Program-made: the position numbers and the translations under genes
The notes under the pieces: generated by a model
The model's database searches: none
What the model was told of the DNA's origin: nothing
What the model saw: only the letters and a program-made list of their open reading frames with translations
Shown here: positions 393 to 41,322 of the stretch, piece after piece
How the letters are laid out: each line of letters starts with the position of its first letter
Position numbering within the stretch: position 1 is the first letter of the stretch
NCBI GenBank assembly: GCA_965369125.1
Contig: CBDUPN010000001.1
Span: forward strand, 118,653-182,652
From: an uncultured Aureibaculum sp.
Lineage (GTDB): Bacteria > Bacteroidota > Bacteroidia > Flavobacteriales > Flavobacteriaceae
Direction: 5' to 3'
DNA: 64,000 nucleotides

Positions 393-1328
393 TCAGGATT
401 TAGGTAAAAACACTTCTGCCATCATACATCTGGCACTGCCACCACCGCAGGTTTCTATGGTGTCTAAAGAACTTGAAATAATTTCACCATGTTTCTCAAT
501 GGACTTAATTTGATTTTTAGAAAGAGATTCAAGGGCAGCCAGGCTCATTATAACAAACTTTTTACCTTTATTGTTAGCTACCTGTAACATGTTACCTGCA
601 AAATTACCAAGTTGTTCTTCGGTGATATCGATGACTTCCTTACCATCGGCCTTTAAATGTTTTACGACGTTTTTTCGTTCACTTTTATCATCTATACTGT
701 TCAAACAAATTACAGAGAATTTTTCCCCTAAACACATCATTACATTGGTATGATAAATAGCCAATCGTTCTCCATTGACGGACTGATTAGCATGAAAAAT
801 TACAGGCTCATAATCGAAATCTTCGCAAAATTCAATGAGCAGTTCTTCATTTGCTCTTGGAGATAATGCACAATAGGCTTTACTATGTTGCCTGTCTAAT
901 ATTAAACTACCTGTACCTTCTAGAAAAACATTTTCAATTTCTGCAGACGTATAATCTATGATATTATGAATTATAAACCCTTCTTTTTCTAACAGATCTA
1001 GAACGCGTTCATCACGCTCCAGACGTCTATTTTCCGCAAACATGGGATATAATACCACATCACCATTTTCGTGAAAAGAGATCCAGTTATTAGGAAAAAT
1101 AGAATCAGGGGTGTCAGGGTTTTTTGTGTCCTGAAAAACAATTACCTGAATACCTTCCGAACGTAATTTCCTTACAAATTCATCGAACTCCTTTAAAGCT
1201 CTGGATTGAACGGCCTCGGGACTAACATCCTCTAAATCCATTTGGTAATAATTATTAACAGCCGTTTGTTCATTCATCCTGAAGTTTACAGGACGAACCA
1301 TCAATATAGTATCGGTAATTTGTCGCAT
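393..1328 (-). CDS. ctlX: Amidinotransferase-superfamily protein, citrulline utilization hydrolase CtlX-like
   Basis: PDSIFPNNW, FLEGTGS, YHTNVMM and C-terminal GGGSARCM (catalytic Cys) motifs. Confidence 0.8.
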   Translation of the reverse strand: MRQITDTILMVRPVNFRMNEQTAVNNYYQMDLEDVSPEAVQSRALKEFDEFVRKLRSEGIQVIVFQDTKNPDTPDSIFPNNWISFHENGDVVLYPMFAENRRLERDERVLDLLEKEGFIIHNIIDYTSAEIENVFLEGTGSLILDRQHSKAYCALSPRANEELLIEFCEDFDYEPVIFHANQSVNGERLAIYHTNVMMCLGEKFSVICLNSIDDKSERKNVVKHLKADGKEVIDITEEQLGNFAGNMLQVANNKGKKFVIMSLAALESLSKNQIKSIEKHGEIISSSLDTIETCGGGSARCMMAEVFLPKS

Positions 1329-1353
1329 TTAAATAATAAGGTTTTTCTTATAC

Positions 1354-1361
1354 CAAAATTA
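1354..1361 (-). promoter_or_regulatory. Bacteroidota -7 promoter element (TAATTTTG) for ctlX
   Basis: Matches TAnnTTTG consensus 25 nt upstream of the ctlX start. Confidence 0.5.
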
Positions 1362-1402
1362 CCATAAAAATATGTGAATTAATCAACTTATAATTATAGA
1401 AA

Positions 1403-3460
1403 TTATATTTCAAATCTTACACCGCCAAAAACGTTAAACCCCGGGGCTGGCTCATAGAATCTGCCGCCAAAAGCATTGATTCTAACATTGTCATTGTACT
1501 TAGTGTTAAACATATTGTTTATTCCTATGAAAGGTGAAATTATAGCATGATTTGTCTTTATTTTATAACCTATATTTAAATTAACAACACTATAATTATC
1601 ATCACTTACAGAATTACTATCATTTGTATATAATTCACCTACATATCGGGACTGTAAACTCGCGGTAAGTCCCGATTTATTGAGATAATCAAAAGAAATT
1701 GTTGCTAAATGCCTTGGAATTCCGGGAAGCATATTATCGTTAAAATTTCCAGAAGAAGTCTCATAATCATCATAAATAAAATCTGAATAGGTATAACTGG
1801 CCTTCAATTTCATGTTTCTTATCAAAGCTTGAGAATAAAAGAATTCAATTCCACTCCTTTTTGTGCTGCCAGCATTTCTGAAAAACGTTCTATCGGGAAA
1901 ATCTTCTAATTCGTATGGTACTAGATCATTATCGGTTTTGATATGAAATATTGCTATTTCGGCCGACATGCTTTCATTCTTAATTTTATATCCTAATTCT
2001 ATATTGCTTGCCTTTTGGGGATTTAATGCTAAATTAAAACCACCTTCTCCGGATGGATTGGCTGAGAGTTCGCTTAATGCCGGTGTTTCAAAACTGGTTG
2101 AAAAATTCGCGAATAAATGATGTTGATGGTTAAGTGAATAATTTATACCAATACTTGGATTGAATGAATGTAAAGAAATATCATCACTACCATCACCATC
2201 GGTAAGAAATTTGTCTTTCGCTTTTAAATGGTTAAGGTCATAACGAATACCTCCGCTTAAAAGAAAATCTCCGGATGAAAAATGATCAACAATAAAAAAC
2301 CCAAGTGATGAGAATGACTCCTTCTGATTGAAAGATCTTTCTCCCTTGATCCCTTCTAAATTATTAAAGCGCAATCTATTATCCTGTTGTATCGCCAGAT
2401 CATAACCAATTTGGACTTTATTTGTGCTGTTAGCAATATGATGTCTAAATGTCAAACTACTGCCATTTCCTGCATAGTTACGCTCAAGATCAACTATTCC
2501 ACCATCTTCAAACGGCAACAACCCATAAAAATCCCTGAATGAATAAAAACTATATGAATTCAATAGTATTCGATGTATTTGATGAGTAAAATTGGCGCCA
2601 ATTTTAAATTGACGTATACTTTCTTGGGTACTATAGTCAATATTACGCTGCCTTGCCTGTCTTCTATCCTCATTTACTTCTTCGAGATTCAATCCACCAG
2701 CATCCTCTGCCAATGGGCTATCTGTATAATTCACTAATATATTTAATTCAGAAGATGGCGTAAACCGATGTTTTAATTTAAAATTAAAATTGTAATTCTC
2801 GAAACCACTTTGTATCCGATATCCGTCTGTGGTTATCCTATTCCCATGAAAAATATAATTAGTACGTTTTCCTTTTAATCCAACTGCAAATTGATATTGT
2901 TGCATATTATAAGTTCCAAAGGTAAATCCGGCTTTTATAAAATTTTCACTAAAATCGTCAATCGTACTTATGCTAATAACACCTCCGGAAGCATTGCCAT
3001 AAAGTGAAGATGAAGGTCCTCTTATAATTTCTAAACTTTTGATGATCGATAAATTTAAATTATCTATTTGACCTTGTCCATCAGGGGTTGTTTCAGGTAT
3101 GCCATCTACTAAAATTTTTATCCCTCTAATACCGAAAGCTGCTCGCGCACCAAAACCACGTATAGAAACCCTAAGGTCTTGAGAATAGTTATTTGCATTT
3201 AAAGCAAATAGCCCCGGTATGCCTGATAAATATTCATTAAATGAAAGTTGTTGATAGATATCTTGTTTTTGTTCGAATTCAATTTTTGAAATAGAAAAAG
3301 GCAGCTTTTCTATGCTTTCTGAAATGCGAGAAACCTTTAAGGTAACAGGTTCTAAGGTTATCGGGCTGAGGCTGTCTTTTTGAGCAAAAATATTATTAAT
3401 TGAACTTATTAATAAAAGGTATAAAATATTCTTAATCATAAAATGGAAGTATTCTTTCAT
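1403..3460 (-). CDS. TonB-dependent receptor, YncD/PqqU (PQQ uptake)-like
   Basis: Plug motif SIRGFGARAAFGIRGIKILVDGIPETTPDGQGQ..LEIIRGPSSSLYGNASGGVI, FETPALSEL, and C-terminal GRFYEPAPG resemble E. coli YncD/PqqU as recalled; N-terminal signal peptide. Confidence 0.75.
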   Translation of the reverse strand: MKEYFHFMIKNILYLLLISSINNIFAQKDSLSPITLEPVTLKVSRISESIEKLPFSISKIEFEQKQDIYQQLSFNEYLSGIPGLFALNANNYSQDLRVSIRGFGARAAFGIRGIKILVDGIPETTPDGQGQIDNLNLSIIKSLEIIRGPSSSLYGNASGGVISISTIDDFSENFIKAGFTFGTYNMQQYQFAVGLKGKRTNYIFHGNRITTDGYRIQSGFENYNFNFKLKHRFTPSSELNILVNYTDSPLAEDAGGLNLEEVNEDRRQARQRNIDYSTQESIRQFKIGANFTHQIHRILLNSYSFYSFRDFYGLLPFEDGGIVDLERNYAGNGSSLTFRHHIANSTNKVQIGYDLAIQQDNRLRFNNLEGIKGERSFNQKESFSSLGFFIVDHFSSGDFLLSGGIRYDLNHLKAKDKFLTDGDGSDDISLHSFNPSIGINYSLNHQHHLFANFSTSFETPALSELSANPSGEGGFNLALNPQKASNIELGYKIKNESMSAEIAIFHIKTDNDLVPYELEDFPDRTFFRNAGSTKRSGIEFFYSQALIRNMKLKASYTYSDFIYDDYETSSGNFNDNMLPGIPRHLATISFDYLNKSGLTASLQSRYVGELYTNDSNSVSDDNYSVVNLNIGYKIKTNHAIISPFIGINNMFNTKYNDNVRINAFGGRFYEPAPGFNVFGGVRFEI

Positions 3461-3549
3461 AGTGACTTAAGCGATACAATATAAAAAATTTAATCATCCC
3501 TTTGAAAGGTTGAACTGTAAAAGAATATTATTCAAATTTTAAAATTTAC

Positions 3550-3605
3550 TTCGGTAAAAAATAATACCCTTTCGGACAATAATTTCACAGTTTCGTCCTA
3601 GGACG
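3550..3605. promoter_or_regulatory. Candidate operator: three TTCG-core direct repeats at 21-bp period plus 12-bp palindrome CGTCCTAGGACG
   Basis: TTCGGT at 3550, TTCGGA at 3571, TTCGTC at 3592; perfect palindrome 3594-3605. Confidence 0.45.
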
Positions 3606-3665
3606 GTTGTTTATTAAAATTTTTCTCGATTACTTCATAAAACAATTATTAAAATCAATTAATTT

Positions 3666-5789
3666 ATGAAAACCAACTCTTATTACTATTTACTCTTGGG
3701 TCTTCTAAGTGTTTTTATGTTTAGCAATTGTACTGGCAAAGATCAAACCGCTAGTTATGACGACAAAGCAATCGCCGATGAAGAACAGGTTTCAGACTGG
3801 CTGGCTTATGGAAGAACCCATAATGAAAGACGATTTAGTCCTGCCCAAGATATTAATACCAATAATGTAGCCAGTTTAAAGGTAGACTGGTTTATGGACT
3901 TACCTTATGATGTCGGGTTGGTCTCTACCCCTTTGGTGGTTGACGGCGTAATCTATTTTACAGGAACTATGAATATTGTGAGGGCTGTAAATGCTGTTAC
4001 TGGTGAATTATTATGGACATTTGACCCCGAAGTAGCCAAGGAAGTTCAAGGTAAAAAGAAAATTGGCTGGTTGCACAATCGTGGAATATCATTTTATGAA
4101 GGAAAAATCTTTGCAGCGACCTGGGATGGCCGACTTATTGCTCTTGATGCAAAAACCGGTAACAAAATATGGTCGGTAAGAACATTTGACATGGAAAGGT
4201 CCCTTTATATAACAGGAGCTCCAAAAGCTTTTAAGGGAAAGGTCTTAATTGGAAACGGAGGTACTGAAAATGGTCCAACAAGAGGATGGGTTACAGCCTA
4301 TGATGCCGATACTGGAAAAGAAGCCTGGAAATTTTATATAGTTCCCGGTAACCCGGCGGACGGATTTGAGAATGAGGCAATGGAAATGGCAGCCAAAACA
4401 TGGACGGGAGAATGGTGGAAACATGGTGGTGGTGGTAATACCTGGCATGGCCTTACCTATGATGCTGAACTAGATGTACTATATATTGGCACCGGAAATG
4501 GATCTCCCTGGAATCGAAAAATAAGAAGTCCCGGTGGAGGGGATAATCTTTTCCTATGTTCAATCGTTGCGCTTAAACCAGATACCGGAGAATACCTTTG
4601 GCATTATCAGACAACCCCGGGGGAAAGTTGGGATTATAATTCTAATATGGATATTGTCTTAACCGATTTAAACATAGACGGCAAAAATATAAAAGCGCTT
4701 TTACATGCACCAAAAAATGGATTCTTTTATGTTATAGACCGCGAAACAGGTAAACTGGTTTCTGCCGAGCCTTTTGCCGAAACCTCATGGGCTTCACATA
4801 TCGATATGGCAACCGGTAGGCCTGTAGAAATTGAAGGAGCAAGATATGAGAATGAACCTGCCTATATAACCCCTGGACCTTGGGGTGCCCATAGTTGGCA
4901 TGCGATGTCTTTTAACCCAAATACCGGATTGGCCTATATTCCGGTAATTCATCAAGCTTTTAACTATTCAGACGAAGGTATTGATCTTGCCAGTTGGCGA
5001 TCTGTCGAATTCGATGGAGGAACAGGTGTTGGTCTTTTAGGCCCTGACAAAGAACCTAGAGAATACCCGGCATCATTATTAGCATGGGACCCTGTGAAGC
5101 AAGAAAAGGTATGGTCTATACCTCAAAACCATTCTCATAATGCCGGCACTTTAACAACAGCGGGCAATCTATTATTCCAAGGAAGACCTGATGGTAAATT
5201 CCTGGCCTATAATGCCACTTCTGGGGAAATCCTTTGGACCTTTGATGTAGGGCTGGGAATTGCAGCTCCTCCTATAACTTATAAGATAGATGGTAAACAG
5301 TATATCTCCCTTTTGGTAGGATGGGGTGGCGGTTATGCCGGCCTCGGTTCCAATAAGGCAGCTGAGCTTGGATGGGCATATGGAGCACAAACGAGAAGGT
5401 TAATTACCTTTTCTTTAGAAGGAACAGCAGATATGCCAAAATTAGCACCACGTTTGATACCTATACCTATAGATTACCCTAATTTTACCATTGACGATGA
5501 CTTAGCATCCGAAGGTGCCAATGTGTATGGCCGATGCAGTGCCTGCCATGGTGGAGGTTTAATTAGTGGAGGAATGGCCCCAGACCTTAGAGCCTCTCCA
5601 ATTCCAATGGATAAGCAGTTGTTTACAGATGTAGTCAAGAATGGTGCAAGGGTGGCAATGGGTATGCCTTCACATCCCGATCTTAATGATGAAAATTTAG
5701 AGGCCCTGCGCCATTATATCCGCCGAACTTCGAGATCTGCTTTACAAAATGACGATAAACAACAAAATAAAAAGTATGATGCAAATTAA
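3666..5789 (+). CDS. PQQ-dependent quinohemoprotein dehydrogenase (type II ADH family) with C-terminal cytochrome c; predicted lipoprotein
   Basis: PQQ beta-propeller Trp-docking repeats, GTENG, GTGNGSPW, WDY, HAPKNGFFY, GWGG; heme-c motif CSACH at 5535-5549 with downstream GMP Met ligand; lipobox MFSN-C22. Confidence 0.9.
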   Translation: MKTNSYYYLLLGLLSVFMFSNCTGKDQTASYDDKAIADEEQVSDWLAYGRTHNERRFSPAQDINTNNVASLKVDWFMDLPYDVGLVSTPLVVDGVIYFTGTMNIVRAVNAVTGELLWTFDPEVAKEVQGKKKIGWLHNRGISFYEGKIFAATWDGRLIALDAKTGNKIWSVRTFDMERSLYITGAPKAFKGKVLIGNGGTENGPTRGWVTAYDADTGKEAWKFYIVPGNPADGFENEAMEMAAKTWTGEWWKHGGGGNTWHGLTYDAELDVLYIGTGNGSPWNRKIRSPGGGDNLFLCSIVALKPDTGEYLWHYQTTPGESWDYNSNMDIVLTDLNIDGKNIKALLHAPKNGFFYVIDRETGKLVSAEPFAETSWASHIDMATGRPVEIEGARYENEPAYITPGPWGAHSWHAMSFNPNTGLAYIPVIHQAFNYSDEGIDLASWRSVEFDGGTGVGLLGPDKEPREYPASLLAWDPVKQEKVWSIPQNHSHNAGTLTTAGNLLFQGRPDGKFLAYNATSGEILWTFDVGLGIAAPPITYKIDGKQYISLLVGWGGGYAGLGSNKAAELGWAYGAQTRRLITFSLEGTADMPKLAPRLIPIPIDYPNFTIDDDLASEGANVYGRCSACHGGGLISGGMAPDLRASPIPMDKQLFTDVVKNGARVAMGMPSHPDLNDENLEALRHYIRRTSRSALQNDDKQQNKKYDAN

Positions 5790-5854
5790 TAAAACGAGAA
5801 GTAAGATATAACCATATTGATTTTAGTTTCTATTTAAGAATTCAACAATTATAT

Positions 5855-5885
5855 AAAGCCCTTTAAAAATAAAGGGCTTTTTTTT
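5855..5885. terminator. Bidirectional intrinsic terminator between convergent dehydrogenase and amidinotransferase genes
   Basis: AAAGCCCTTT-aaaaat-AAAGGGCTTT followed by T run. Confidence 0.75.
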
Positions 5886-5900
5886 CATGAATAATTATAA

Positions 5901-6815
5901 TCAATCTCTTATCAAAGGCATGGTTGAACAACGCAATAGTCCTCCTTGCTTGCCAATTTCGGCATAAGGCACCCTTTCAACGGTAATTCCCTGATCTTCA
6001 AACCACTTATTTAATCTGGTAAAATTAATTTCAGAAATTACCACATTAGGAGAAATTGAGAAAATGTTGCTTTTCATATTATACATTTCGTCTTTATTGA
6101 TCTGGAATACATTTTCCTCACCAAAATAATTCAACAACCACTCATACTCTTCTTTTATTAAAAAGCCATTTTTATGCAAGATGGCTTTGTTATTGCCAAC
6201 GGGTTGGAAACAACAATCCAAATGAAGGGCATTATTGCGCGGATCTGTATTTGATTTTCTCAATTCGAAAGACTTTATTTTTTTATGCGGAAAGAATTCC
6301 TTAATGGCCTCAACAGCTTCATTATTTGTTCTGGCTGTGATGTATTGCGCATAATCGGCGCCTGTATAGGTACCTATAAAAATATATTCGTTGTGTGGAA
6401 TAACATCACCCCCTTCTATATGGGCCTCTTTAGGCAATCTAACAATCTTTGCTGGATCTATCTGATCTATTACGTATCTGATTGCTTCAATCTCCTTTTC
6501 CCTTTCCGGTAAAATATTACAATCAATAATATAATCGTCAATTACCAAGGCAATATCTCGTGCAAAAATTTGATTATAATTTACGATTACTTTCGGACGA
6601 AATACCTGTACACCATATTTCTTGAAAACCTTGCAAACGGCATCCATTTCCCTAATCATATCCTCCTCCTTCGGGTAAGTTCCCGCTAAGAGATGTTCAC
6701 GTGATTTTGGATCGTATGCCTCTTCGACAGTTGGATTAGGCCCAATACTTTCTGCCGTTCCAAGGATAACGGCTCTTAACCTGGAAGTCTCATTTTGAAT
6801 ATTTAATTGTAGCAT
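5901..6815 (-). CDS. Amidinotransferase / dimethylarginine dimethylaminohydrolase (arginine deiminase-like) family protein
   Basis: QIFARD, IEGGD, LHLDC and GGLLRCSTMP motifs of the pentein fold. Confidence 0.8.
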   Translation of the reverse strand: MLQLNIQNETSRLRAVILGTAESIGPNPTVEEAYDPKSREHLLAGTYPKEEDMIREMDAVCKVFKKYGVQVFRPKVIVNYNQIFARDIALVIDDYIIDCNILPEREKEIEAIRYVIDQIDPAKIVRLPKEAHIEGGDVIPHNEYIFIGTYTGADYAQYITARTNNEAVEAIKEFFPHKKIKSFELRKSNTDPRNNALHLDCCFQPVGNNKAILHKNGFLIKEEYEWLLNYFGEENVFQINKDEMYNMKSNIFSISPNVVISEINFTRLNKWFEDQGITVERVPYAEIGKQGGLLRCSTMPLIRD

Positions 6816-6881: not shown

Positions 6882-8168
6882 TTATCTTTTATCTATTGTT
6901 TTGAATGGCCTTTGGGTCTCACCTATATAAATTTGACGTGGACGACCAATAGGTTCTTTATTCATCCTCATTTCCTTCCATTGTGCAATCCAACCGGGAA
7001 GTCTTCCCAATGCAAACATAACTGTAAACATTTCGGTAGGAAATCCTAAAGCCTTATAAATAATTCCAGAATAAAAATCGACATTTGGATAAAGTTTGCG
7101 ATCAACAAAATACTTTTCTTCCAATGCTTGTTTCTCAAGACCTTTGGCTATGGTAAGTACAGGATCATCTATTCCCAGATCATCTAATAATTCGTCGGCA
7201 GATTTTTTAATGATCTTTGCTCTAGGATCGAAATTCTTATAAACTCTATGCCCAAATCCCATTAAACGGAATGGGTCATTTTTGTCCTTGGCCTTTTCCA
7301 TATATTTCGCCGTATCTCCATCATCAGCCATTATCGCCTCTAACATTTCAACAACCGCTTGATTAGCGCCACCATGTAATGGTCCCCATAGTGCAGATAT
7401 GCCCGAAGATAAGGAGGCAAATAATCCGGCATGTGATGAACCTACAATCCTAACAGTACTGGTCGAACAATTTTGTTCATGGTCAGCATGAAGAATTAAT
7501 AATTTATCCAAGGCATCAACCACAACTGGATTCATTATATATTTTTCATTAGGCTTTTTAAACATCATCTTTAAGATATTCTCAACATAGCCTAAAGAAC
7601 TATCGCTATACCTTAATGGCAGACCTTGATATTTTCGCATTGTCCAAGCCACCAACACAGGAAATTTTCCCATGATCTTCACAATGGCTTTGTACATAGC
7701 CTCTTCTGAATCAACATTTACGGAGGATGGATTAAAAGAAGTTAATGCGCTTGTTAAGGAAGCAAGTACGCCCATTGGGTGTGCTGCCTTCGGAAATGCG
7801 TCTAATATCTTTTTGAGTTCTTCATCAACTATAGACTGTTTTTTAATATCATTTTCAAATTTTTCTAAAGTCTCAGCATCAGGTAATTCACCAAAAATTA
7901 GTAAGTAAGCAACTTCCAAAAAATCGGCTTTTTCGGCCAATTCTTCAATGGAATAGCCCCTGTAACGTAGGATACCTTTCTCTCCATCTAAAAAAGTAAT
8001 GGCACTCTCACATGATCCTGTATTTTTATATCCGGGGTCAAGGGTTATTATTCCACCTGTATCACTCCTTAATGATTTTATATCTATACCTATTTCACTT
8101 TCAGTACCTTTAACTATTGGCAATTCATAGGAAGATCCATTAACTATAAGTGTTGCTTTATCTGACAT
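6882..8168 (-). CDS. gltA: Citrate synthase, bacterial type II (GltA)
   Basis: DPGYKNT, LHADHEQNCST, GPLHGGAN, GFGHRVYKNFDPR, YPNVDFYSG; probable start MSDKATL at 8168 rather than 8222. Confidence 0.93.
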   Translation of the reverse strand: MSDKATLIVNGSSYELPIVKGTESEIGIDIKSLRSDTGGIITLDPGYKNTGSCESAITFLDGEKGILRYRGYSIEELAEKADFLEVAYLLIFGELPDAETLEKFENDIKKQSIVDEELKKILDAFPKAAHPMGVLASLTSALTSFNPSSVNVDSEEAMYKAIVKIMGKFPVLVAWTMRKYQGLPLRYSDSSLGYVENILKMMFKKPNEKYIMNPVVVDALDKLLILHADHEQNCSTSTVRIVGSSHAGLFASLSSGISALWGPLHGGANQAVVEMLEAIMADDGDTAKYMEKAKDKNDPFRLMGFGHRVYKNFDPRAKIIKKSADELLDDLGIDDPVLTIAKGLEKQALEEKYFVDRKLYPNVDFYSGIIYKALGFPTEMFTVMFALGRLPGWIAQWKEMRMNKEPIGRPRQIYIGETQRPFKTIDKR

Positions 8169-8258
8169 TTTATAATTGAATTTAATTATTATTTGAAAGT
8201 ACGCTAAATTACAAAATTTCAATTAGAAAATAATTATCAAAAGATTTCTATTAAAATG

Positions 8259-8321: not shown

Positions 8322-9653
8322 TTATAAAGAAGAAACGCTTTCTTTTTTATTTTTTTTAGCCATGGCTTCTAACATATCTGTGGTTATGGATTTAGGTCTT
8401 TCTAAAGGATAGCCCAAGGCGCGATCCCATACAATATTTGACAACACACCAATAGATCTGCCAATGGCAAATAGCACTGTATAGAAATCATATTGTGTAA
8501 CACCATAATGCCATTGAAGAACCCCTGATTGGGCATCTACATTGGGCCACGGATTCTTAGCCTTACCCTGTTCCCTTAAAATATCTGGCACAACTTTATA
8601 CAATGCATCTACATATTTAAACAATTCATCATCCTTCATATGCTTGAGGCAGAACTCTCTTTGTACGGTATATCTCGGATCTGTTTTTCTCAAAACCGCA
8701 TGGCCATAACCAGGTATAACCTGACCGTTATTCAAGGTCTCCCAAACGTAATTTTTCATTTCTTCTTCTGTTGGGATCTTACCACCCATTTGTTCTCTAA
8801 GGCCTTGTAACCAGCGAAGCACTTCTTGATTTGCCAAACCGTGCAAAGGACCTGCCAAACCATTAGTCATTGCAGAAATTGCGTAATACACATCAGATAA
8901 TGAACTAGCCACTAAATGACCTGTATGGGCACTAACATTACCACTTTCATGGTCGGCATGAATAATGAAATACATACGGGCAACATCATCATATGGTTTA
9001 TCTTTTCCCATCATATAGGCAAAATTGGCACCGAGATCTAAAGAAGCGTCTGGATAACGGTGACCTTTTTCGGGATGATAAAGTTTATTGTAAATATAGG
9101 CCCCTATTAAAGGCATTTTTGCTAATAAATTCGTTGCGTCCTCATAGGTAGCATCCCAGTAGTCCATTTTATTCAAGCCACGTTCATACATCAAATTAAA
9201 ATGGGATTCTCGTTGTAAGCTCATTACGGCAGCCGACAAAATAGCCATAGGATGACTTTCACTGGGAAAAGAATCAATAACATCCCAAACATAGCGGGGT
9301 ATCACTCTCCTATTCCTTAAATTTGTCATCAGCTCCTCAACTTCCTTTTCTGTGGGCATTTCGCCTGTTAATAATAAATGATACAATCCTTCAACATAAG
9401 GCATTTCAGCATCCTTGGCTTTAGGTAATTTTTCCAAAACTTCCGGTAAGGTGAACCCCCTATATCGTATTCCTTCATTAGGGTCTAAATAAGAAATGTC
9501 TGTAACTAAACTTTTAATACCCCTCATACCACCTATTATTTGGGAAACAGTTACTTTATCAATAACTACATCGCCATACTCTTTCAAAAGTTTTTCAGTG
9601 CGTGGTCTATGTTCTAGAATTTTTTCGTATAACTTATCTTTTAACGTGATCAT
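8322..9653 (-). CDS. Citrate synthase, eukaryotic/mitochondrial type
   Basis: GGMRGIK, HADHESGNVSAHT, GLAGPLHGLANQEV, PGYGHAVLRKTDPRY, NPWPNVDA, ALGYPLERPKS are signatures of the mitochondrial-type enzyme. Confidence 0.88.
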   Translation of the reverse strand: MITLKDKLYEKILEHRPRTEKLLKEYGDVVIDKVTVSQIIGGMRGIKSLVTDISYLDPNEGIRYRGFTLPEVLEKLPKAKDAEMPYVEGLYHLLLTGEMPTEKEVEELMTNLRNRRVIPRYVWDVIDSFPSESHPMAILSAAVMSLQRESHFNLMYERGLNKMDYWDATYEDATNLLAKMPLIGAYIYNKLYHPEKGHRYPDASLDLGANFAYMMGKDKPYDDVARMYFIIHADHESGNVSAHTGHLVASSLSDVYYAISAMTNGLAGPLHGLANQEVLRWLQGLREQMGGKIPTEEEMKNYVWETLNNGQVIPGYGHAVLRKTDPRYTVQREFCLKHMKDDELFKYVDALYKVVPDILREQGKAKNPWPNVDAQSGVLQWHYGVTQYDFYTVLFAIGRSIGVLSNIVWDRALGYPLERPKSITTDMLEAMAKKNKKESVSSL

Positions 9654-12493: not shown

Positions 12494-13189
12494 TTATAAG
12501 AGTGAATTATAATAATCAAAAATCTTTTTAAGATCATCATCTGTTTTTATTGACAATTTATTATTAGAAATAAACTTATTTACTTTTTGTGATCTATCAC
12601 CAAATAATTTAAGAATATTTTTCTTTTTTAAAGCAAACTCTGTTAATTTATCATTTTTATTTAAAAAATAACTTTCTTTTAAAATGAGATAATCCGGTTC
12701 TTTCTGCTGTGTTAGACCGTTAGTAATTCCGGTTCTGATCTCTTTTTGGTATCTTTTTAATAATTCAAAATCATTACTATTTGCGATTACTTCATAAAAA
12801 TTAAATGCACCATCTTTTTGATTCATGAATTTCTTAAAAACCCTATTATTGATTATTGCCTTTTCTATATAGGATGGTTTAAATATAAAAACAGAATCTG
12901 TAGTTGTTTTGGTTAAAAAGTAATCAGAATATGCATTATAATTCAGCCCTTGGATCTTATAAACTTTATTATCTGTGGTGAATATTTCTCCATAAATCTT
13001 CCAATTATCAAATAGATAAGGGGAACCTTCTACTTTAGTAGATGAAGAACTACTAACGACATCACGTGATATCCCTCTTATCTCTATAAACTTAGAATCG
13101 CGACTAACTCCGGCTCCGAAGTTATATTGATCTTGAGAATACCCCATTATAGAACAAAACATTGCTATTAAATACATTATTTTTCTCAT
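12494..13189 (-). CDS. Secreted hypothetical protein (GSPYL-motif family), paralog 1
   Basis: Probable start MRKIMYL at 13189, signal peptide ending GYS-Q; similar along its length to the adjacent ORF. Confidence 0.7.
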   Translation of the reverse strand: MRKIMYLIAMFCSIMGYSQDQYNFGAGVSRDSKFIEIRGISRDVVSSSSSTKVEGSPYLFDNWKIYGEIFTTDNKVYKIQGLNYNAYSDYFLTKTTTDSVFIFKPSYIEKAIINNRVFKKFMNQKDGAFNFYEVIANSNDFELLKRYQKEIRTGITNGLTQQKEPDYLILKESYFLNKNDKLTEFALKKKNILKLFGDRSQKVNKFISNNKLSIKTDDDLKKIFDYYNSLL

Positions 13190-13223
13190 AATTACTTTGT
13201 TTAGAATTCTCAATAACAAAGAT

Positions 13224-13255
13224 AAAAAAAGGATAAACTTATTTAGTTTATCCTT
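13224..13255 (-). terminator. Terminator hairpin (AAGGATA..TATCCTT family, copy 2) overlapping a TATCTTTG -7 element at 13217-13224
   Basis: AAGGATAAACT-tattt-AGTTTATCCTT 11-bp stem. Confidence 0.65.
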
Positions 13256-13294
13256 CATGTATAATTTTACTTTGTTTTCAGATCAACTTTTACC

Positions 13295-13996
13295 TTACAT
13301 TAGGGATTCATAATAATTAAAAATCTTTCTAAGATCAATATCTTCTTTAATTGATAGTTTATTATCCGAAATATACTTTTTTACGGTTTGAGATTTATTT
13401 CCAAATAATTTCAGGATGTTTTTCTTTTTTATAGATAATTCTGTCAAGTTCCCATTTTTATTCAAATAATAATCTTCTTTAAGTATAAAATAATCACTTT
13501 CTTTCTCCATTGTCAACCTATTTGTTATACCTATTCGAAGTACCTTTTGATTTCTTTTTAGGATCTCTGTGTCATCATTGGCCGCAATGACTTCATAATA
13601 ATTAAATAAGGCCGTTTCCTGATTTAAATATTTTTTAAATCTTCGGTTGTTAATAGTAACTTCCTTTAAATAGTTAGGTTTGAACATGAAAACAGAATCC
13701 TGAGATATTTTTGCCACAAACAAATCTGATTTTGTATCGTAATTTAAATTTACGATCTTAAATTTTTGATCATCTAGTGTGGTAACAACAGAAATATTGT
13801 TCCAATCATCAAATAAATAGGGTGTGCCTTTTACTTTTGAAATAGTTTTAGACCCACCTATTTTCAAATATGTTCCTGAGTTGTAACTAGTTATGCTCGC
13901 CGAACTGTTATTAATATCTGCTCCAGTCAAAAAATTTGACTGGCTAAATCCCGACAGCGCGCTAATTAAAATAATAAATTGAATAAATTTTTTCAT
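13295..13996 (-). CDS. Secreted hypothetical protein (GTPYL-motif family), paralog 2
   Basis: Probable start MKKFIQF at 13996, signal peptide ending GFS-Q; shares KKKNILKLFG and FIS/YISDNKLSIK..DL.KIF.YY with paralog 1. Confidence 0.7.
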   Translation of the reverse strand: MKKFIQFIILISALSGFSQSNFLTGADINNSSASITSYNSGTYLKIGGSKTISKVKGTPYLFDDWNNISVVTTLDDQKFKIVNLNYDTKSDLFVAKISQDSVFMFKPNYLKEVTINNRRFKKYLNQETALFNYYEVIAANDDTEILKRNQKVLRIGITNRLTMEKESDYFILKEDYYLNKNGNLTELSIKKKNILKLFGNKSQTVKKYISDNKLSIKEDIDLRKIFNYYESLM

Positions 13997-14015
13997 TGCT
14001 AATTTAATATAATAC

Positions 14016-14046
14016 AAAAAGGATATTCCTGAACAGAATATCCTTT
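14016..14046 (-). terminator. Terminator after rplQ (AAGGATA..TATCCTT family, copy 1)
   Basis: AAAGGATATTC-ctgaaca-GAATATCCTTT 11-bp stem. Confidence 0.7.
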
Positions 14047-33209: not shown

Positions 33210-36200
33210 ATGAAAACAAAGTTACATGGATTTTTAACGCTATTATTGGCGTTTTTGGTGCAATTAACCTTTGCACAAGAAAAAACTATCACGGGTACGG
33301 TTACTGATGAATCAGGACCATTACCAGGTGTGAGTATATTGATTAAAGGTACCACAACCGGTGCCGAAACCGATTTTGACGGTAATTACACCATTCAAGC
33401 AAATACAGGTGATGTTCTTGTATTTAGTTTTATTGGAATGTCAACTCAAGAAAGAGTGGTTGGTGCTGCTAACACAATTAATGTTGTATTGGTTGCCGAT
33501 AATATTCTTGAAGAGGTTGTAGTTACAGGGTATGCTTCTGTAAGAAAAACGGAGGTAACCGGTTCTACGGTGCAACTTAAATCAGAAGAATTTGATATGG
33601 TGCCTGTGGCGTCAGTAGATCAAGCACTTCAAGGAAAAGTTGCCGGATTACAATTTAGTGGTAATTCTGGTACACCTGGTTCTACAACTAATATTAGAAT
33701 TAGGGGTAGAAGTTCTATTACAGCAGGTAATGAACCTTTATATGTGATTGACGGTGTTCCTATGGTTAACACAAATACTTCTGCAACTACATCAGGTTCA
33801 TCATTATCTCCACTAGCCAGTATAAACAGTAATAATATAGAAAGTATAACTGTTTTAAAGGATGCATCTGCAACTGCTGCTTATGGTGCCAGAGGTGCCA
33901 ACGGGGTAATTGTTATTACCACCAAAAGTGGACGTTCAGGAAAAACGACTTTTAACTTTAGTTCATCTTATGGTTTTGCCAATGATGCTACTAAGGGGCC
34001 AGATCCTTTAACAGGTGCCGAAAGGGAGGAACTTTTTTATGAAGCCCTTTTTAATACTTATGGAGCAGATTTTGGATTTACAATAGATGGAGCACAGGAC
34101 TTTTATGAAAGTTATCCGGGTTCTTTTGGTACAGATTATACTACTTGGAATGCTGCTGGTAGGCCAGAAGCAAATTGGAAAAAAGTGATTACCAATAATG
34201 ATGCACCAATAATGGATTATAACTTTTCTGCCAGTGGTGGAACTGAAGATTATAATTTTTATGCGTCTTTAGGTTATTTTGATCAAGAAGCTACCGTTAT
34301 AGGTAGTAATTTCGACAGAATTACAGGTCAACTTAATTTTAGTAAAAACCTGTCGGATAAGTTAAAATTCAGTACGATTAATTCTGCTGCACATTCCTTT
34401 CAAGATGGTTTGTTGGAAACTAGTGCCTATTTTTCTTCACCCCGTTCGGTAGTATATTTTATGCCTCCGATCGATCAGCCATATACTGATGATGGTGAAA
34501 TTAATGTGCTTGATCCTGGTACATCATTACCAAATCCATTATGGATAGCACAGGAAGATATAGATGATTCTAAATTAACTAGAATTTTATCAAATCAATC
34601 ACTCGACTGGGAAACTCCGATTAAAAACCTAAGTCTTAGTAGTAAAATAACTATAGATTATCAAGTTTATAATTACAAGCGTTATAGAAATAGAATAAGA
34701 GGTGATGGTGCTAGTTCTGATGGTTATGGATGGCAAGCGCACAGTAACAGAGCAAATTATGTGTTTCAAAACGCTATAGATTATACCTGGGAATTAAATG
34801 ACGATCATACTTTCGATTTTAAATTATTACAGGAATATCAAAAAAATAGATTTTACTATTTAGAGGCCGATGGTGACTCTTTTCCAACTGATGGTTTAAC
34901 AAACCTCGCTTCAGCGGGTAACCCAACTACAGCAAATTCGTTCTATACTGACTGGTCTATTGCCTCTTATTTGGGTATCATGCATTATACGGCATTTGAC
35001 GCCAGATATGTATTCGATGCGACCTTTAGAAGAGAAGGTAGTTCTCGTTTTGCTCCTGATGAAAGATGGGGTAATTTTTGGTCTGTAGGTGCAGCATGGA
35101 ATATGCACAAAGAAAGCTTCTTAGAAAATAGTGACTTCTTAAATAATTTAAAATTAAGAGGTTCTTATGGTGTTACTGGTAATGCTTCAATAAATTTAAA
35201 TCAATATCAGGCTTTGTTTGCATTTGATTCGAATTATGCCGGTGAAGGAGCTGCATACCCAAGTACTTTTGGTAATGATAAATTATCGTGGGAAACATCC
35301 TATACTTTAGACTTAGGTCTTGACTTTGGATTATTCAATAACAGGGTTAACGGTTCTCTTGCTTATTATCGAAGAGAATCTAAAGACCTGCTTCTTGATG
35401 TACCACTATCTTTAACAACTGGTTTTACTTCTCAAACAAGAAATATTGGTAGAATGGAGAATAAAGGTTTGGAAGCTGAGTTAAACTTTGATATCATTAA
35501 AACAGAAGATTTTAACTTGTCTCTTGGAGGTAATGTAGCTACGAATGATAATGAAGTGTTAGAATTGGCTAAAGATGCGAATGGTGAAGAGATCAATATT
35601 TCTGGCGGAACTCAACGAGTAGAAACCGGTCATCCTGTTTATGGATGGTATTTGAGAGAGTGGGCAGGTGTCGATCCTGATAATGGAGACGAATTATATT
35701 ACACCGAAGGTGCAGGTAGTGAAACTACTAACAATTGGAATGACGCAGAACAAGTTTGGATGGGCGGCAGTGCCTTACCAACGATAACTGCAGGATTGAA
35801 TTTCCATGTTGATTTTAAAGGGTTCTTTTTAGATGCCAATGCATATTATGCAGGAGGCCATAAAGTTTATGAAGACTGGCATCGTTATACCGCCGGTAGA
35901 GACTTGTTTTCTCTGTTATATTACCAAGGTACAGATGCCATGTTAGACAGATGGCAACAACCTGGTGACGTTGCAAGATTTGGTAGAATGCAGGCAACAA
36001 CATTCCCATGGCAACTTAATTCGAAATTTTTATACGATGGTGATTATATGAGAATCAAAAATCTTACTTTTGGTTATGACTTTAATTATAATTTCCTTGA
36101 AACCATAAAAGTAGACGGATTTAGAGTATTCGTTCGCGGTACAAATCTATTCACATGGGTAAAAGACGATCGTTTGGAATATGACCCTGAAGTTGACACA

Positions 36201-36269
36201 AGTGGATTTACATCCTTAACTACTCCTCCTGTTAAGTCGATCATTTTAGGAATTAATATTAAATTTTAA
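33210..36269 (+). CDS. SusC/RagA-family TonB-linked outer membrane transporter
   Basis: CarboxypepD-reg-like N-domain, EEVVVTGY TonB box, VLKDASATAAYGARGANGVIVITTK plug motif. Confidence 0.93.
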   Translation: MKTKLHGFLTLLLAFLVQLTFAQEKTITGTVTDESGPLPGVSILIKGTTTGAETDFDGNYTIQANTGDVLVFSFIGMSTQERVVGAANTINVVLVADNILEEVVVTGYASVRKTEVTGSTVQLKSEEFDMVPVASVDQALQGKVAGLQFSGNSGTPGSTTNIRIRGRSSITAGNEPLYVIDGVPMVNTNTSATTSGSSLSPLASINSNNIESITVLKDASATAAYGARGANGVIVITTKSGRSGKTTFNFSSSYGFANDATKGPDPLTGAEREELFYEALFNTYGADFGFTIDGAQDFYESYPGSFGTDYTTWNAAGRPEANWKKVITNNDAPIMDYNFSASGGTEDYNFYASLGYFDQEATVIGSNFDRITGQLNFSKNLSDKLKFSTINSAAHSFQDGLLETSAYFSSPRSVVYFMPPIDQPYTDDGEINVLDPGTSLPNPLWIAQEDIDDSKLTRILSNQSLDWETPIKNLSLSSKITIDYQVYNYKRYRNRIRGDGASSDGYGWQAHSNRANYVFQNAIDYTWELNDDHTFDFKLLQEYQKNRFYYLEADGDSFPTDGLTNLASAGNPTTANSFYTDWSIASYLGIMHYTAFDARYVFDATFRREGSSRFAPDERWGNFWSVGAAWNMHKESFLENSDFLNNLKLRGSYGVTGNASINLNQYQALFAFDSNYAGEGAAYPSTFGNDKLSWETSYTLDLGLDFGLFNNRVNGSLAYYRRESKDLLLDVPLSLTTGFTSQTRNIGRMENKGLEAELNFDIIKTEDFNLSLGGNVATNDNEVLELAKDANGEEINISGGTQRVETGHPVYGWYLREWAGVDPDNGDELYYTEGAGSETTNNWNDAEQVWMGGSALPTITAGLNFHVDFKGFFLDANAYYAGGHKVYEDWHRYTAGRDLFSLLYYQGTDAMLDRWQQPGDVARFGRMQATTFPWQLNSKFLYDGDYMRIKNLTFGYDFNYNFLETIKVDGFRVFVRGTNLFTWVKDDRLEYDPEVDTSGFTSLTTPPVKSIILGINIKF

Positions 36270-36275
36270 GAAATC

Positions 36276-37640
36276 ATGAAAAAAATAAATATCTTATATA
36301 CATTATTATTTATATTTTTTATTTCATTTACTGCATGTTCAACCGATGATTTAGAACCTAGCTTGGAACAAAATCAGTCTGTTGAGGGTAGTATCGTAGA
36401 TGTAAATAATTTATATAGTGTTCTAAAAGGAGCATACAGCCAAATGACAGTTTCCGGTTATTATGGCAGAGATCTAATTGCAACAAATGAAGTTCGTACC
36501 GACAATTGTTTTTCGAATGGTAATTCCGGACGATTTACTACACAGGCTTCATTTACCTATACCGAGAATACCGGATATTTTTGGGACGAAGCTTATAGCA
36601 CTATTGCTGATGTAAATATTATCATAAATACTGATGTAACTACCCTAACGGGAGATCAAGAATATGGGAAACATTTACAAGGTCAGGCTTATGCTATTAG
36701 AGCATTGGTACATTTTGATCTTTTAAAGCAATATGGCCAGGTAAATACCGGTGGAACCCTAGGTGTACCTTATGTTACAGAATTTAAAGGTGAGGATCTG
36801 TTTCCAGCGAGAAATACGGTTGCAGAAGTGAAAACCTTTATAATGGATGACCTGACAAATGCTTTTAACCTTATGAGCGATAGTTTTTTCGATGCTAGTA
36901 AAGAGTTTATGTCAAAATATACTGCCAAAGCTTTAGAATCCAGAGTAGCTATCTATTTTGGTGATTGGCCAACGGCAAGAACTGCTGCAGAAGATGTTAT
37001 AAATTCAGGGCTATATTCTATTATTAGTGCCGATAATTTTGTTGGCAGTTGGGCAGGAAAAGGAAATTCGAATTCAATTTTCGAACTTGCCTATAGCGCT
37101 ACCGATAACCAGGGAATTAATGGCCTTGCATATATATATAGACAAGGTGCGACAGGAAGTTATGGTGATGTGCAAGTTCTAGCAAATGTAGAAGACCTTT
37201 ACGAAGATGGTGATGTTAGAGCAGGAATTTTAGGATATGAAGGTGATAAATTGAGAAATTTAGGCAAATATCCTGATCTTCAAGGTTATGATAATGTACC
37301 TATTATTAGATATGAGGAGGTTATTTTAAACTATGCTGAAGCTTTGTTTGAAACAAGTGGGGACGCATTAACGCAATTAAACTTAATCACATCAAATAGA
37401 GGAGCTACTGCTTATACATCTGTAACAAAAGAGGATATTCTTAACGAAAGACGAAAAGAACTAATGTTTGAAGGTTTCCGTTTTGATGATCTAATGAGAA
37501 CAGGTAGCGATATCGAAAAGATCGATTTTAACCAAAACTTTGCAAGCACCATTCCTTATGGCGATTTTAGATTAGCCTGGGCAATTCCTAGGGCCGAAAT
37601 TGACGCCAATTCGAATATGGTTCAAAACGATGGTTATTAA
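36276..37640 (+). CDS. RagB/SusD-family nutrient-binding lipoprotein
   Basis: Lipobox FTA-C, RALVHFDLL, IRYEEVILNYAEA, ERRKELMFEG.RFDDL, QNDGY. Confidence 0.9.
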   Translation: MKKINILYTLLFIFFISFTACSTDDLEPSLEQNQSVEGSIVDVNNLYSVLKGAYSQMTVSGYYGRDLIATNEVRTDNCFSNGNSGRFTTQASFTYTENTGYFWDEAYSTIADVNIIINTDVTTLTGDQEYGKHLQGQAYAIRALVHFDLLKQYGQVNTGGTLGVPYVTEFKGEDLFPARNTVAEVKTFIMDDLTNAFNLMSDSFFDASKEFMSKYTAKALESRVAIYFGDWPTARTAAEDVINSGLYSIISADNFVGSWAGKGNSNSIFELAYSATDNQGINGLAYIYRQGATGSYGDVQVLANVEDLYEDGDVRAGILGYEGDKLRNLGKYPDLQGYDNVPIIRYEEVILNYAEALFETSGDALTQLNLITSNRGATAYTSVTKEDILNERRKELMFEGFRFDDLMRTGSDIEKIDFNQNFASTIPYGDFRLAWAIPRAEIDANSNMVQNDGY

Positions 37641-37687: not shown

Positions 37688-38104
37688 ATTTTATATACTT
37701 TTAAAAATCGGAATGCCAGTTGCGAATAGTTCTTGCTTTAGATTTATATGGTAAAGTTAATCTTTATATTAGATGGTGATTATGGTACAGGCATAGTTTT
37801 ACCAATCAATTAAAATAAAAATACTTGATATAATTAAATAAACAAGGATTTAACCGCTGCCAAGAAATATAAAATTGTTTTTTTACTACTCATACTGTAC
37901 CTTCCTCAAATAAAAGGTTTTTAAAAAATTTATATTTTTATTTAGAATTAACGCAACTAAAATTATATCAATGCATCTAAGTTTAAATATACCATCATCT
38001 TCTTAAGATTTATTTAACAATTTTATAAATATTTTATGTTAAAAAATAGGATTTTTAACTAATTATTAAGACTTTTGGCTCAAATTAATTCAAATAATTA
38101 TACA

Positions 38105-41100
38105 ATGAAAACAAAGTTTAGTGGAATTTTAACGCTATTACTGGCGTTTATGGTGCAAATAACATTTGCACAGGAAAAAACTATCACTGGTACTGTGACT
38201 GATGAATCAGGGCCATTGCCAGGCGTTAGTATAATAATTAAAGGAACTACATCTGGTACAGAAACCGACTTTGATGGGAAATATACCCTTCAAGCTAGTG
38301 TTGGTGATGTACTTGTATACAGTTTTGTAGGTATGTCTAGTCAAGAGGCTACGGTTGGCGTTTCAAATACTATCAATATAGTGTTGAAAGCCGATAACGT
38401 TCTTGAAGAGGTTGTAGTTACTGCTGTAGGTATTTCCAGAAGAGAAAAAGAACTTGGATACAATGTTCAAAGTGTGAGTGCTGAAGAAATAAGCGCAAAA
38501 CCAAATGCCGATATTGTTAACTCATTGGCAGGAGCAACATCTGGTGTGCAAGTTGTTAGTTCATCTGGTGAAGCCGGGGCTTCTACATTTATTACTATTA
38601 GGGGTTCATCTTCTATTACTGGTAATAACCAACCTTTATTTGTGGTGAACGGTATGCCTATCATCTCAGGTGGTGGATCAAGTGATGTTGGAGGAACAAA
38701 TACATCCAGCAGATCTATTGACATCAACCCTGATGATATCGAATCGCTTTCAGTACTAAAGGGTGGTGCTGCAACAGCATTATATGGTGTAAGAGCGGCA
38801 AACGGTGCGGTTATTATTACAACTAAAAGTGGTAAGAATCTAACAGCAAGAAAAATTGAATTCCATAGTTCTTATGCAATTGATATGGTATCTCAATTAC
38901 CGGAAAGACAAAAGAAATATGCACAAGGAAGTGGCGGTGTCTGGTCAAGTGGAAATGCGGCTTCTTGGGGGCCTGAAATCTCTAGCTTAGAATATGACGG
39001 AGATACTTCTTATAAATGGGATCCATTCGGACGTTTAGTTCCAGCCGGAACAGGAAATGGGAATCCTGCGAGATATTACGATCCTTACGAATTCTTCCAA
39101 CATGGAGCACAGAGCAATAATCGCTTTAGTATAGCGAATGGAAGTGATCAAGGAAATTACTTTTTCTCACTTTCTAATCTAGAACAAGATGGTATCATAC
39201 CAAATAACCAATATGGTAGAACAACGGTTCGTTTAAATGCTTCAACAAAATTATCAGAGAATGCTACTTTTGGAGCTGATATGTCTTATACCAATTCAAG
39301 AGCCGTTCAAATTCAAAAAGGTTCGAATGTTTCTGGTATTATGCTAGGTCTATTAAGAACAGCTACTACTTTTGATAACAGTGCTGGTTATGAATTTGCA
39401 GACGGTACTCAAAGAAACTACCGAAATGGTGGTGGTTATGATAACCCTTATTGGACAGCAAATAATATCAAATTTGATGAAGATATAAACCGTTTTGTAG
39501 GTGGCGTGAATTTGAATATGAAATTTACAGATTGGTTTAGTTTAGGTTATAATGCCGGTATCGACTGGTATAACAGAAGATATGTTGATCAATTTAAAAT
39601 TGGATCAAGAGGTAATCCAACTGGTTACCTAGGTGAATATTCTAATTTCTCCAGTGTTGTGAATTCCGATTTATTATTGAATTTCCAAACTGACATTACT
39701 GATGACTTTAATGCAAAATTAACATTAGGTAATAACTTTTATTCTCAATATAATAAATGGTTATTTGGTGATGCCACAGGTTTATCAATTCCAGATTTCT
39801 ATCAATTGAATAATACGAGTAATAATACTACTGCAACGAATGTCTATGGTCGTTATAAAACAATGGCTGTATTTGCAGATCTTCAATTGTCATTTATGGA
39901 TATGATCTTCTTAGGTGTAACCGGAAGAAATGACTGGTCAACTACGATGCCAGAACAAAATCGTTCTGCATTCTATCCTTCTGCAAGTTTAGGTTTTGTA
40001 TTTTCACAACTTGAAGGCATGAAAGGTGGCTTTTTATCATTTGGTAAATTAAGAGCCTCTGCTGCAAGAACTGCAAACATTGCTCCTGCATTTAATACTG
40101 ACAATTATTTCTTTGCTGCCGGAACTGCCGATGGTTGGACAAATGGGGTGAATTTCCCTTTCCAAGGTCAAACAGGATTCCAGGTAGGAAATCAGTTAGG
40201 AAATCCAGATCTTAAACACGAAACTCAAGATTCTTGGGAAGTTGGTGCAGATCTAAGATTTTTCAAAAATAGATTAGGTGTTGATTTTACCTATTTTAAC
40301 AATGTAAATAGCGACCTTTTAATGGCTGTGCCAATTGCAGCTTCTTCTGGGTTTACATCTTCATTCTTAAATGCAGCCTCCATGGAGTCTAAGGGTATTG
40401 AAGTTAGCTTAAATGCTACTCCTTTAAAATCTGAAGATTTCCAGTGGGATTTTGTGGTTAACTTTACAAAATTCACAAACATCGTAACAGAATTAGCTGA
40501 AGGTGTTGATAATATATTCTTAGGTGGATTTACAACGCCTCAAGTGCGAGCAGTTGTTGGTGAAGAATACAGAAGTATCTTCGGTGAAGACTGGTACAGA
40601 GACGGTGATGGAAACATATTGATCAATGACGATCCTACAGATTCATATAGAGATGGATATCCTATGACCAATACTGTTCAAGGGTTGGTTCCAATAGGTA
40701 ACTTTAATCCTGATTGGACTGCCAATATGACCAATAATATTAAATACAAAGACCTGTCATTATCATTCTTAATTGATGTGAAATCTGGTGGAGTTATGTA
40801 TAATGGTACTGCTTTTGCGATGAATTTCTTTGGTGTACACGGTCGTACAGTAAACAGAGAAGTGTATTATAATACTGATGGTAGTATTAATTTCGATCTT
40901 ACCCCAGCTGAAAACCTTAGAGTATTTGATGGCGTATATGGGCATGTAGTTAATGGTGTAGGTGTTTCAAGTGGAGAACAAAATGTAACTCCAGTAGTTG
41001 AAGACGAAGCTTGGTTTACAGGACAAGGTAGTAACTTTGGTGGCGGACCATCATCTGCCGCTATGGAGCCTGCTGATTGGGTTCGTTTGAGAGATATTAC

Positions 41101-41305: not shown

Positions 41306-41322
41306 AAAGTAAAAATTAAATC

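Follow-up and report, generated by a model that had tools for sequence, protein, structure and literature searches.

A widespread quinohemoprotein dehydrogenase subfamily without the vicinal Cys-Cys ring, and its member in an uncultured Aureibaculum

Described quinohemoproteins and the Aureibaculum gene

Quinohemoprotein dehydrogenases hold pyrroloquinoline quinone (PQQ) and Ca2+ on the axis of a propeller and pass electrons from PQQH2 through a fused heme c to the respiratory chain. The subject of this work is a gene for such a protein (3666-5789, + strand) in a 64,000-nucleotide stretch of contig CBDUPN010000001.1 from an uncultured Aureibaculum sp., the whole of which is referred to as the window. 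The closest solved enzymes, ADH-IIB of Pseudomonas putida HK5 (Protein Data Bank (PDB) entry 1kv9), ADH-IIG (1yiq) and the quinohemoprotein ethanol dehydrogenase (QH-EDH) of Comamonas testosteroni (1kb0), likewise carry a PQQ propeller and a cytochrome c on a single chain, and all of them have a pair of adjacent cysteines (Cys-Cys). In canonical enzymes this pair forms a ring on one face of PQQ and has been associated with electron transfer (PMC12997753, citing Mennenga 2009). Nearly every orthologue is described as keeping the pair (PMC8561711), and type II alcohol dehydrogenases (ADHs) are described as proteobacterial (PMC12137402).

Lupanine 17-hydroxylase of Pseudomonas, a quinocytochrome c, is by its description a PQQ propeller with a C-terminal heme c and of similar length, and its CGACH motif lies at residues 613-617 (PMC6208669). 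ExaA/PedE, PedH, MxaF and XoxF fall in the same propeller family (TIGR03075), at 27-33% identity to the Aureibaculum dehydrogenase by Foldseek, but they have no fused heme domain and possess both the Cys-Cys ring, associated in them with the passage of electrons to cytochrome c550 (PMC12997753), and the Glu that contacts the PQQ carboxylates. In the lanthanide forms among them, the second residue past the catalytic Asp (position +2) is also Asp, where the dehydrogenase has Asn.

The open reading frame (ORF) translates into a protein of 707 residues, in which a Pfam scan finds the PQQ propeller (PF01011, E=1e-75) and a C-terminal cytochrome c domain (PF13442/PF00034, residues 615-688; 5508-5729, + strand) whose CXXCH and axial Met thus form part of one chain with the propeller. 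Among the NCBIfam models, the protein passes TIGR03075 (PQQ dehydrogenase, methanol/ethanol family) with 563 bits against a cut-off of 480, and TIGR04528 (acido_non_PQQ) is a secondary match at 342 bits, far under its own cut-off of 650. Its top solved relative is ADH-IIB (E=7e-203, 49% identity), followed by ADH-IIG and QH-EDH, and across the three the identity is 43-49% over about 660 residues, with template modelling (TM) scores of 0.80-0.89. The AlphaFold2 model has a mean predicted local distance difference test (pLDDT) score of 82 and a predicted TM score (pTM) of 0.85, and is matched to 1kv9 by Foldseek with TM scores of 0.84/0.89. By fold and domain order, the dehydrogenase is thus a type-II-like quinohemoprotein, with an eight-bladed PQQ propeller followed by a heme c domain.

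The active site and the subfamily

The subfamily of the dehydrogenase is large and spans several phyla. The vicinal Cys-Cys ring has been lost in it, as has the Glu at the PQQ carboxylates, and what it retains are the catalytic Asp with the Ca2+ ligands, the heme site and the remaining PQQ contacts. In a HMMER alignment with 1kv9, the SCCDAVNRG segment of ADH-IIB lies opposite KIGWLHNRG, part of a loop (KKIGWLHNRG, residues 131-140; 4056-4085, + strand) in which Ile133-Gly134 stand for Cys105-Cys106, Trp135 for Asp107 and His137 for Val109, with Arg139 kept. As only four cysteines (22, 298, 624 and 627) are present in the protein, the last two of them belonging to the heme site, a disulfide ring is impossible anywhere in it. 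Similarly, GLVSTP (residues 84-89; 3915-3932, + strand) lies opposite the GLEATP of 1kv9, so that the Glu of the usual G-x-E-A-T-P motif (Glu59) is replaced by Val86. An earlier note on this DNA, made from its letters alone, had reported both the missing Cys pair and the altered PQQ-binding Glu, and all the motifs it named are found in the translation where it had placed them.

The remaining elements of the site align with their counterparts in 1kv9. The Ca ligand Glu201, in GGTENG (residues 198-203; 4257-4274, + strand), lies opposite Glu173 in GGAEYG, and here the change of Ala to Thr200, together with one extra residue inserted behind this Glu, marks the clade. The second Ca ligand, Asn278 in the invariant GTGNG (residues 275-279; 4488-4502, + strand), corresponds to Asn250, and the catalytic Asp323 in WDYN (residues 322-325; 4629-4640, + strand) to Asp295. 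Arg139, Thr183, Trp260 (the stacking residue), Lys350 (Lys322 in 1kv9), Trp411 and Trp474 all have equivalents, and at the heme site Cys624, Cys627 and His628 of CSACH (residues 624-628; 5535-5549, + strand) and Met667 of GMP (residues 666-668; 5661-5669, + strand) pair with Cys591, Cys594, His595 and Met633. The retention of Ca ligands and heme site described in the note is thereby borne out. So is its remark that WDYN lacks the lanthanide-marking Asp at +2, the metal-selectivity site, where Asn325 (Thr in 1kv9) is, by alignment, neither that Asp nor the usual Ala, Ser or Thr; under the D-x-D rule the enzyme is predicted to be of the Ca type.

These features are conserved. The patterns G-[KR]-[KR]-x-[IV]-G-W-x-H-N-R-G and G-L-V-S-T-P are shared by nearly all of the best 120 homologues (identity 67-95%). 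In an alignment of 54 sequences (67-84% identity), Gly84, Leu85, Val86, Ser87 and Pro89 are invariant, as are Gly134, Arg139, Thr183, Glu201, Trp260, Asn278, Asp323, Lys350, Trp411, Trp474, Cys624, Cys627, His628 and Met667, with Trp135 present in 52, His137 in 53 and Asn325 in 52. Moreover, comparison with a 95%-identical orthologue on another contig (L003) gives a synonymous divergence (dS) of 0.43 and a nonsynonymous one (dN) of 0.024, that is, a dN/dS of 0.055. The ORF encodes an intact enzyme under strong purifying selection. With a loop and catalytic residues that hardly vary, if at all, the loop replacement and the loss of Glu are conserved traits and no one-off defect.

The extent of the subfamily was followed in a homologue search over 1.84 billion representatives, from which a maximum-likelihood tree of 82 full-length sequences, including the three PDB enzymes, was built. 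In this tree the clade of the dehydrogenase is monophyletic (P0122, P0123 and P0124 being deeper branches), small groups that likewise lack Cys-Cys (P0130/P0131 and P0132/P0140) are its sisters, and clade and sisters together sit inside the Cys-Cys-bearing type II radiation, beside the 1kv9 and 1kb0 lineages. As the Cys-Cys-less assemblage is nested in Cys-Cys-bearing enzymes, the disulfide was lost secondarily. With its own conserved loop and its place among type II enzymes, the clade answers to the distinct subfamily that had been proposed in the note. A second Cys-Cys-less quinohemoprotein group, larger and more distant, appears in the same tree, so ring loss among PQQ/heme fusion proteins is not unique. 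Among solved structures, the nearest ones found for either Cys-Cys-less group were the type II enzymes with Cys-Cys, the best PDB matches of a member of the distant group being the same four Cys-Cys-type structures.

A scan with one genome per species confirmed at least 588 loci of the clade, and thus at least 588 species genomes, with hosts in five or more phyla, from Bacteroidota, Gammaproteobacteria and Acidobacteriota to Gemmatimonadota and Myxococcota; Flavobacteriaceae, Cyclobacteriaceae, Saprospiraceae, Chitinophagales, Balneolales, Woeseiaceae, Steroidobacteraceae, Pseudomonadales and Vicinamibacterales are represented. Among its named cultured hosts are Lutimonas vermicola, Algoriphagus lacus, Namhaeicola litoreus, Fulvivirga sedimenti and Stutzerimonas stutzeri. 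The closest orthologue cluster comes from Aureibaculum metagenome-assembled genomes (MAGs), and the DNA sequencing runs that contain the gene are marine sediment metagenomes. All database names of clade members are generic, such as 'quinohemoprotein ethanol dehydrogenase', and no characterised or structurally solved member was found. In short, a familiar kind of enzyme has here a genuine variant that is widely distributed and uncharacterised. At five loci of the clade (L029, L039, L050, L059 and L064), from Acidobacteriota, Pseudomonadales, Pseudohongiella and a gammaproteobacterium, a second dehydrogenase paralogue lies no more than 4 kb away.

All 80 retrieved loci have GNGGTE and none has Cys-Cys, and nearly all have W-D-[YF]-N. 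In a wider table of 86 sequences (P0001, 75 loci and 10 representatives), Trp135 is present in nearly all; His137 is the mark of one subclade, being Ser, Gln, Asn or Trp in others. Position 86 is Val, Leu, Ile or Thr and never acidic throughout the wider clade, and the sister group P0130/P0131 retains Glu. At +2 from the catalytic Asp, DYN or DFN predominates, with Thr in a few sequences and in deeper branches.

The protein begins with a signal peptide that has a hydrophobic h-region and ends in a lipobox Cys22 (FSNC; 3666-3731, + strand, Cys22 being 3729-3731). From inspection of its sequence it is a candidate lipoprotein, with an unusual Asn at -1 of the F-S-N-C lipobox, and would in this respect differ from the ADH-IIB type, a soluble proteobacterial enzyme. 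The Cys22 column, following L/F-x-S/A, is kept in at least 90% of the 54 homologues, and lipobox cysteines occur in clade members from Bacteroidota, some Woeseiaceae, Steroidobacteraceae and some Gemmatimonadota. Members from Pseudomonadales, Stutzerimonas, Hydrogenophaga, Panacagrimonas and Acidobacteriota have plain signal peptides. The membrane tether put forward in the note is thus supported in part, the lipobox Cys being conserved in Bacteroidota but absent from members with plain signal peptides; lipidation appears to follow host lineage and not to be a trait of the subfamily, and membrane tethering of the enzyme in the flavobacterium is plausible.

Proposed PQQ supply and a reading of the altered site

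Divergently from the dehydrogenase gene, a TonB-dependent outer-membrane receptor of 685 residues is encoded (1403-3460, - strand). In a phmmer search of the PDB, it matches Escherichia coli PqqU (YncD) over its full length (6v81, E=2.5e-100; 9c4o, 'PQQ transporter', 1.2e-99), far above the next-best TonB-dependent receptor (1e-17 or worse). Seven residues of E. coli PqqU contact PQQ, namely Q84, Y99, Q121, K274, R304, R365 and R536 (PMC12124388). In the receptor, Q84, Q121, R365 and R536 are identical and Y99 is Phe, giving five of seven identical or conservatively changed; K274 is replaced by Glu (residue 280 of the receptor), and R304 falls in an alignment gap. A PqqU variant with Glu in place of K274 has been modelled as a metal site that might permit co-transport of PQQ with metal, the confidence in these metal models being low by the authors' own account (PMC12124388). 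PqqU is widespread in Bacteroidota, in which 206 PqqU-encoding genomes were found and PQQ biosynthesis in none of them (PMC12124388). The receptor is accordingly predicted to be a PqqU-type PQQ importer, and its presence next to the dehydrogenase argues that the latter uses scavenged PQQ; it is the strongest contextual argument against reading the enzyme as degenerate and unable to bind PQQ.

The pair recurs in the 95% relative on L003, where the intergenic region is 96% identical. A conserved PqqU-dehydrogenase module was considered and set aside, as tblastn over 85 loci recovered the receptor only in that relative; the pairing is a lineage-specific arrangement, functionally sensible, and no conserved operon. 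On related flavobacterial contigs a backbone of gltA, a DDAH-like gene, ctlX and coaD is conserved, and the interval from the DDAH-like amidinotransferase gene to ctlX (393-6815 in the window) is a variable insertion slot, 47 bp long in one relative (L109) and about 0.9 kb in two others (L088/L089). In L093 it is occupied by two permease genes, in L091 by a PqqU-like gene with a lipoprotein gene, and here by the PqqU-like gene with the dehydrogenase gene. The L091 lipoprotein (1857-2555 of that contig, - strand), which has 232 residues and no Pfam family and is divergently paired with the PqqU-like receptor, is a candidate for another PQQ-related periplasmic protein.

From these elements a mechanism may be proposed. 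The flavobacterium, which probably makes no PQQ of its own, would import PQQ through the divergently encoded receptor, and receptor and dehydrogenase would form a local pair that scavenges the cofactor and uses it. The dehydrogenase, held by its N-terminal lipid, would bind PQQ and Ca2+ in the periplasm and, with Asp323 as the base, oxidise some alcohol, aldehyde or polyol, sending electrons from PQQ by way of its own heme c into the respiratory chain. The invariant Gly134 may allow main-chain packing against the face of PQQ that the disulfide ring occupies in canonical enzymes, Trp135 may cap PQQ and possibly relay electrons towards the heme, and His137, in this subclade, may take the place of the missing Glu in contacting the PQQ carboxylates, as it stands two residues before Arg139 on the same face of the strand. 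Generalised to the subfamily, the proposal is that of a natural, widespread, disulfide-free quinohemoprotein in which Gly-Trp (with His in the subclade) caps PQQ and relays electrons and the carboxylate contact is rebuilt without Glu; in this form it is tentative and, in our estimate, has somewhat less than an even chance of being correct.

Taken as a whole, the locus is best explained by an intact Cys-Cys-less PQQ/Ca2+/heme c dehydrogenase fed by scavenged PQQ, to which we assign a probability of roughly 0.7. Several points weigh against this explanation. NF041535 (PqqU), although the top NCBIfam match of the receptor, is reached at 387 bits, under its equivalog cut-off of 1200, which with the K274 change and the unalignable R304 sets the receptor apart from E. 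coli PqqU. None of 81 other distinct loci has the receptor within 10 kb of the dehydrogenase, L091 has a PqqU-like gene in the slot with no dehydrogenase beside it, and the slot being variable, adjacency here could be incidental. No RNA runs with the gene were found. The active-site loops of the AlphaFold2 model have pLDDT of only about 56-72, a dip to be expected of modelling without the cofactor. In addition, PQQ binding and substrate oxidation are functions predicted from sequence, and the roles suggested for Gly134, Trp135 and His137 come from alignment and strand geometry alone.

A first rival explanation is that the loop change is substrate-neutral and that the protein, though without the disulfide, works as an ordinary type II ADH, oxidising the short-chain alcohols (primary and secondary) and diols on which ADH-IIB and ADH-IIG act. 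Its likeness to ADH-IIB (49% identity, TM 0.84-0.89) and the retention of every catalytic and metal residue would suit such a function, and the short-chain dehydrogenase/reductase (SDR), aldo-keto reductase and aldehyde dehydrogenase genes that occasionally neighbour the clade among the 80 loci fit general alcohol and aldehyde metabolism. However, Val86, Gly134, Trp135, Thr200 with its insertion, and Asn325 were altered jointly and have stayed fixed since, a pattern suggestive of a remodelled pocket and not of drift, and the context of an ethanol-oxidation operon (cytochrome c550, aldehyde dehydrogenase and pqq genes) is lacking. We regard ordinary function as unlikely, yet a rival to be taken seriously. 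The bulky, non-ethanol substrate suggested in the earlier note proved to be unsupported. Clustering of 498 neighbouring ORFs from the 80 loci gave no recurrent partner genes beyond within-lineage synteny, so that prediction of the substrate from gene context was abandoned.

The two other rivals concern what is bound in the propeller. That PQQ is no longer used, the site being empty or filled by another cofactor as in the 'acido-empty-quinoprotein' groups of organisms without PQQ synthesis, would accord with the disappearance of two canonical features of the PQQ site, the absence of PQQ biosynthesis in Bacteroidota and the secondary match to TIGR04528 (342 bits). This match, however, stays far below the cut-off of 650 while TIGR03075 is passed, the other PQQ-contact, Ca-ligand and catalytic residues are invariant under a dN/dS of 0.055, and a PqqU-type importer gene adjoins that of the dehydrogenase; loss of PQQ use is therefore highly improbable. 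About equally improbable is a lanthanide enzyme without D-x-D, in which Asn325 would serve as an extra oxygen ligand and the Glu-variant receptor would bring in PQQ together with the metal. Asn325 in 52 of 54 homologues, unlike the Ala, Ser or Thr typical of Ca enzymes, and a receptor that has the very K274-to-Glu change modelled as a metal site (PMC12124388) could be cited in its favour, but the accepted marker of lanthanide use is Asp at +2 (PMC11996626; PMC12997753), Thr occupies this position in the deeper branches of the clade, and low confidence was placed in the metal models by their own authors (PMC12124388).

Surroundings of the gene and wider meaning

Receptor and dehydrogenase genes share a divergent intergenic region of 205 bp (3461-3665), in which promoter-like hexamers were seen in a consensus scan only. 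The start codon of the dehydrogenase gene is preceded, at a distance of 60 nt, by a perfect 12-bp palindrome, CGTCCTAGGACG (3594-3605). The core of the palindrome but not its outer pairs is kept in L003, and no claim is made for it as a regulatory site. Downstream, a strong intrinsic-terminator-like hairpin with an 11-bp stem and a following T run (5855-5880, + strand) ends the dehydrogenase gene, which is monocistronic. Recent horizontal transfer of the gene was also considered, as its GC content is 0.43 against 0.34 for the window, yet GC at third codon positions (GC3) is 0.32, within the 0.19-0.35 of the window; the excess in codon positions 1 and 2 reflects amino-acid composition, and transfer was rejected.

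No pqq genes or other cytochromes are present in the 64-kb window, the rest of which consists of housekeeping genes and SusC/D pairs. At 6882-8222 and 8322-9653 (- strand), two citrate synthase genes that differ from each other stand in tandem, one a type I bacterial gltA and the other matching best eukaryotic-like citrate (Si)-synthase models. Further on, tandem paralogues (12494-13258 and 13295-14017, - strand; GC 0.26-0.27) encode secreted proteins of about 250 residues, the first of which has no Pfam family, and consecutive gene pairs at 33210-37640 and 38075-42708 (+ strand) are SusC/SusD-like by size and N-terminal sequence only.

The adjacent-Cys disulfide has been treated as a signature of the methanol/ethanol-family quinoproteins, and a large clade does without it. 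Characterisation of one clade member, for which the homologue of Stutzerimonas stutzeri is tractable, would reveal what caps PQQ, and by what path electrons get to the heme, when no ring is present, and a function would follow for a gene now generically labelled 'quinohemoprotein ethanol dehydrogenase'. If true, the disulfide-free reading would offer a direct comparative test of the long-debated role of the Cys-Cys ring. For the organism, the dehydrogenase and the PqqU-type importer would represent a compact pair of cofactor scavenger and cofactor user in a phylum unable to make PQQ; possibly, if the reading is true, marine Bacteroidota living on scavenged PQQ would also oxidise a new class of substrates in the periplasm.

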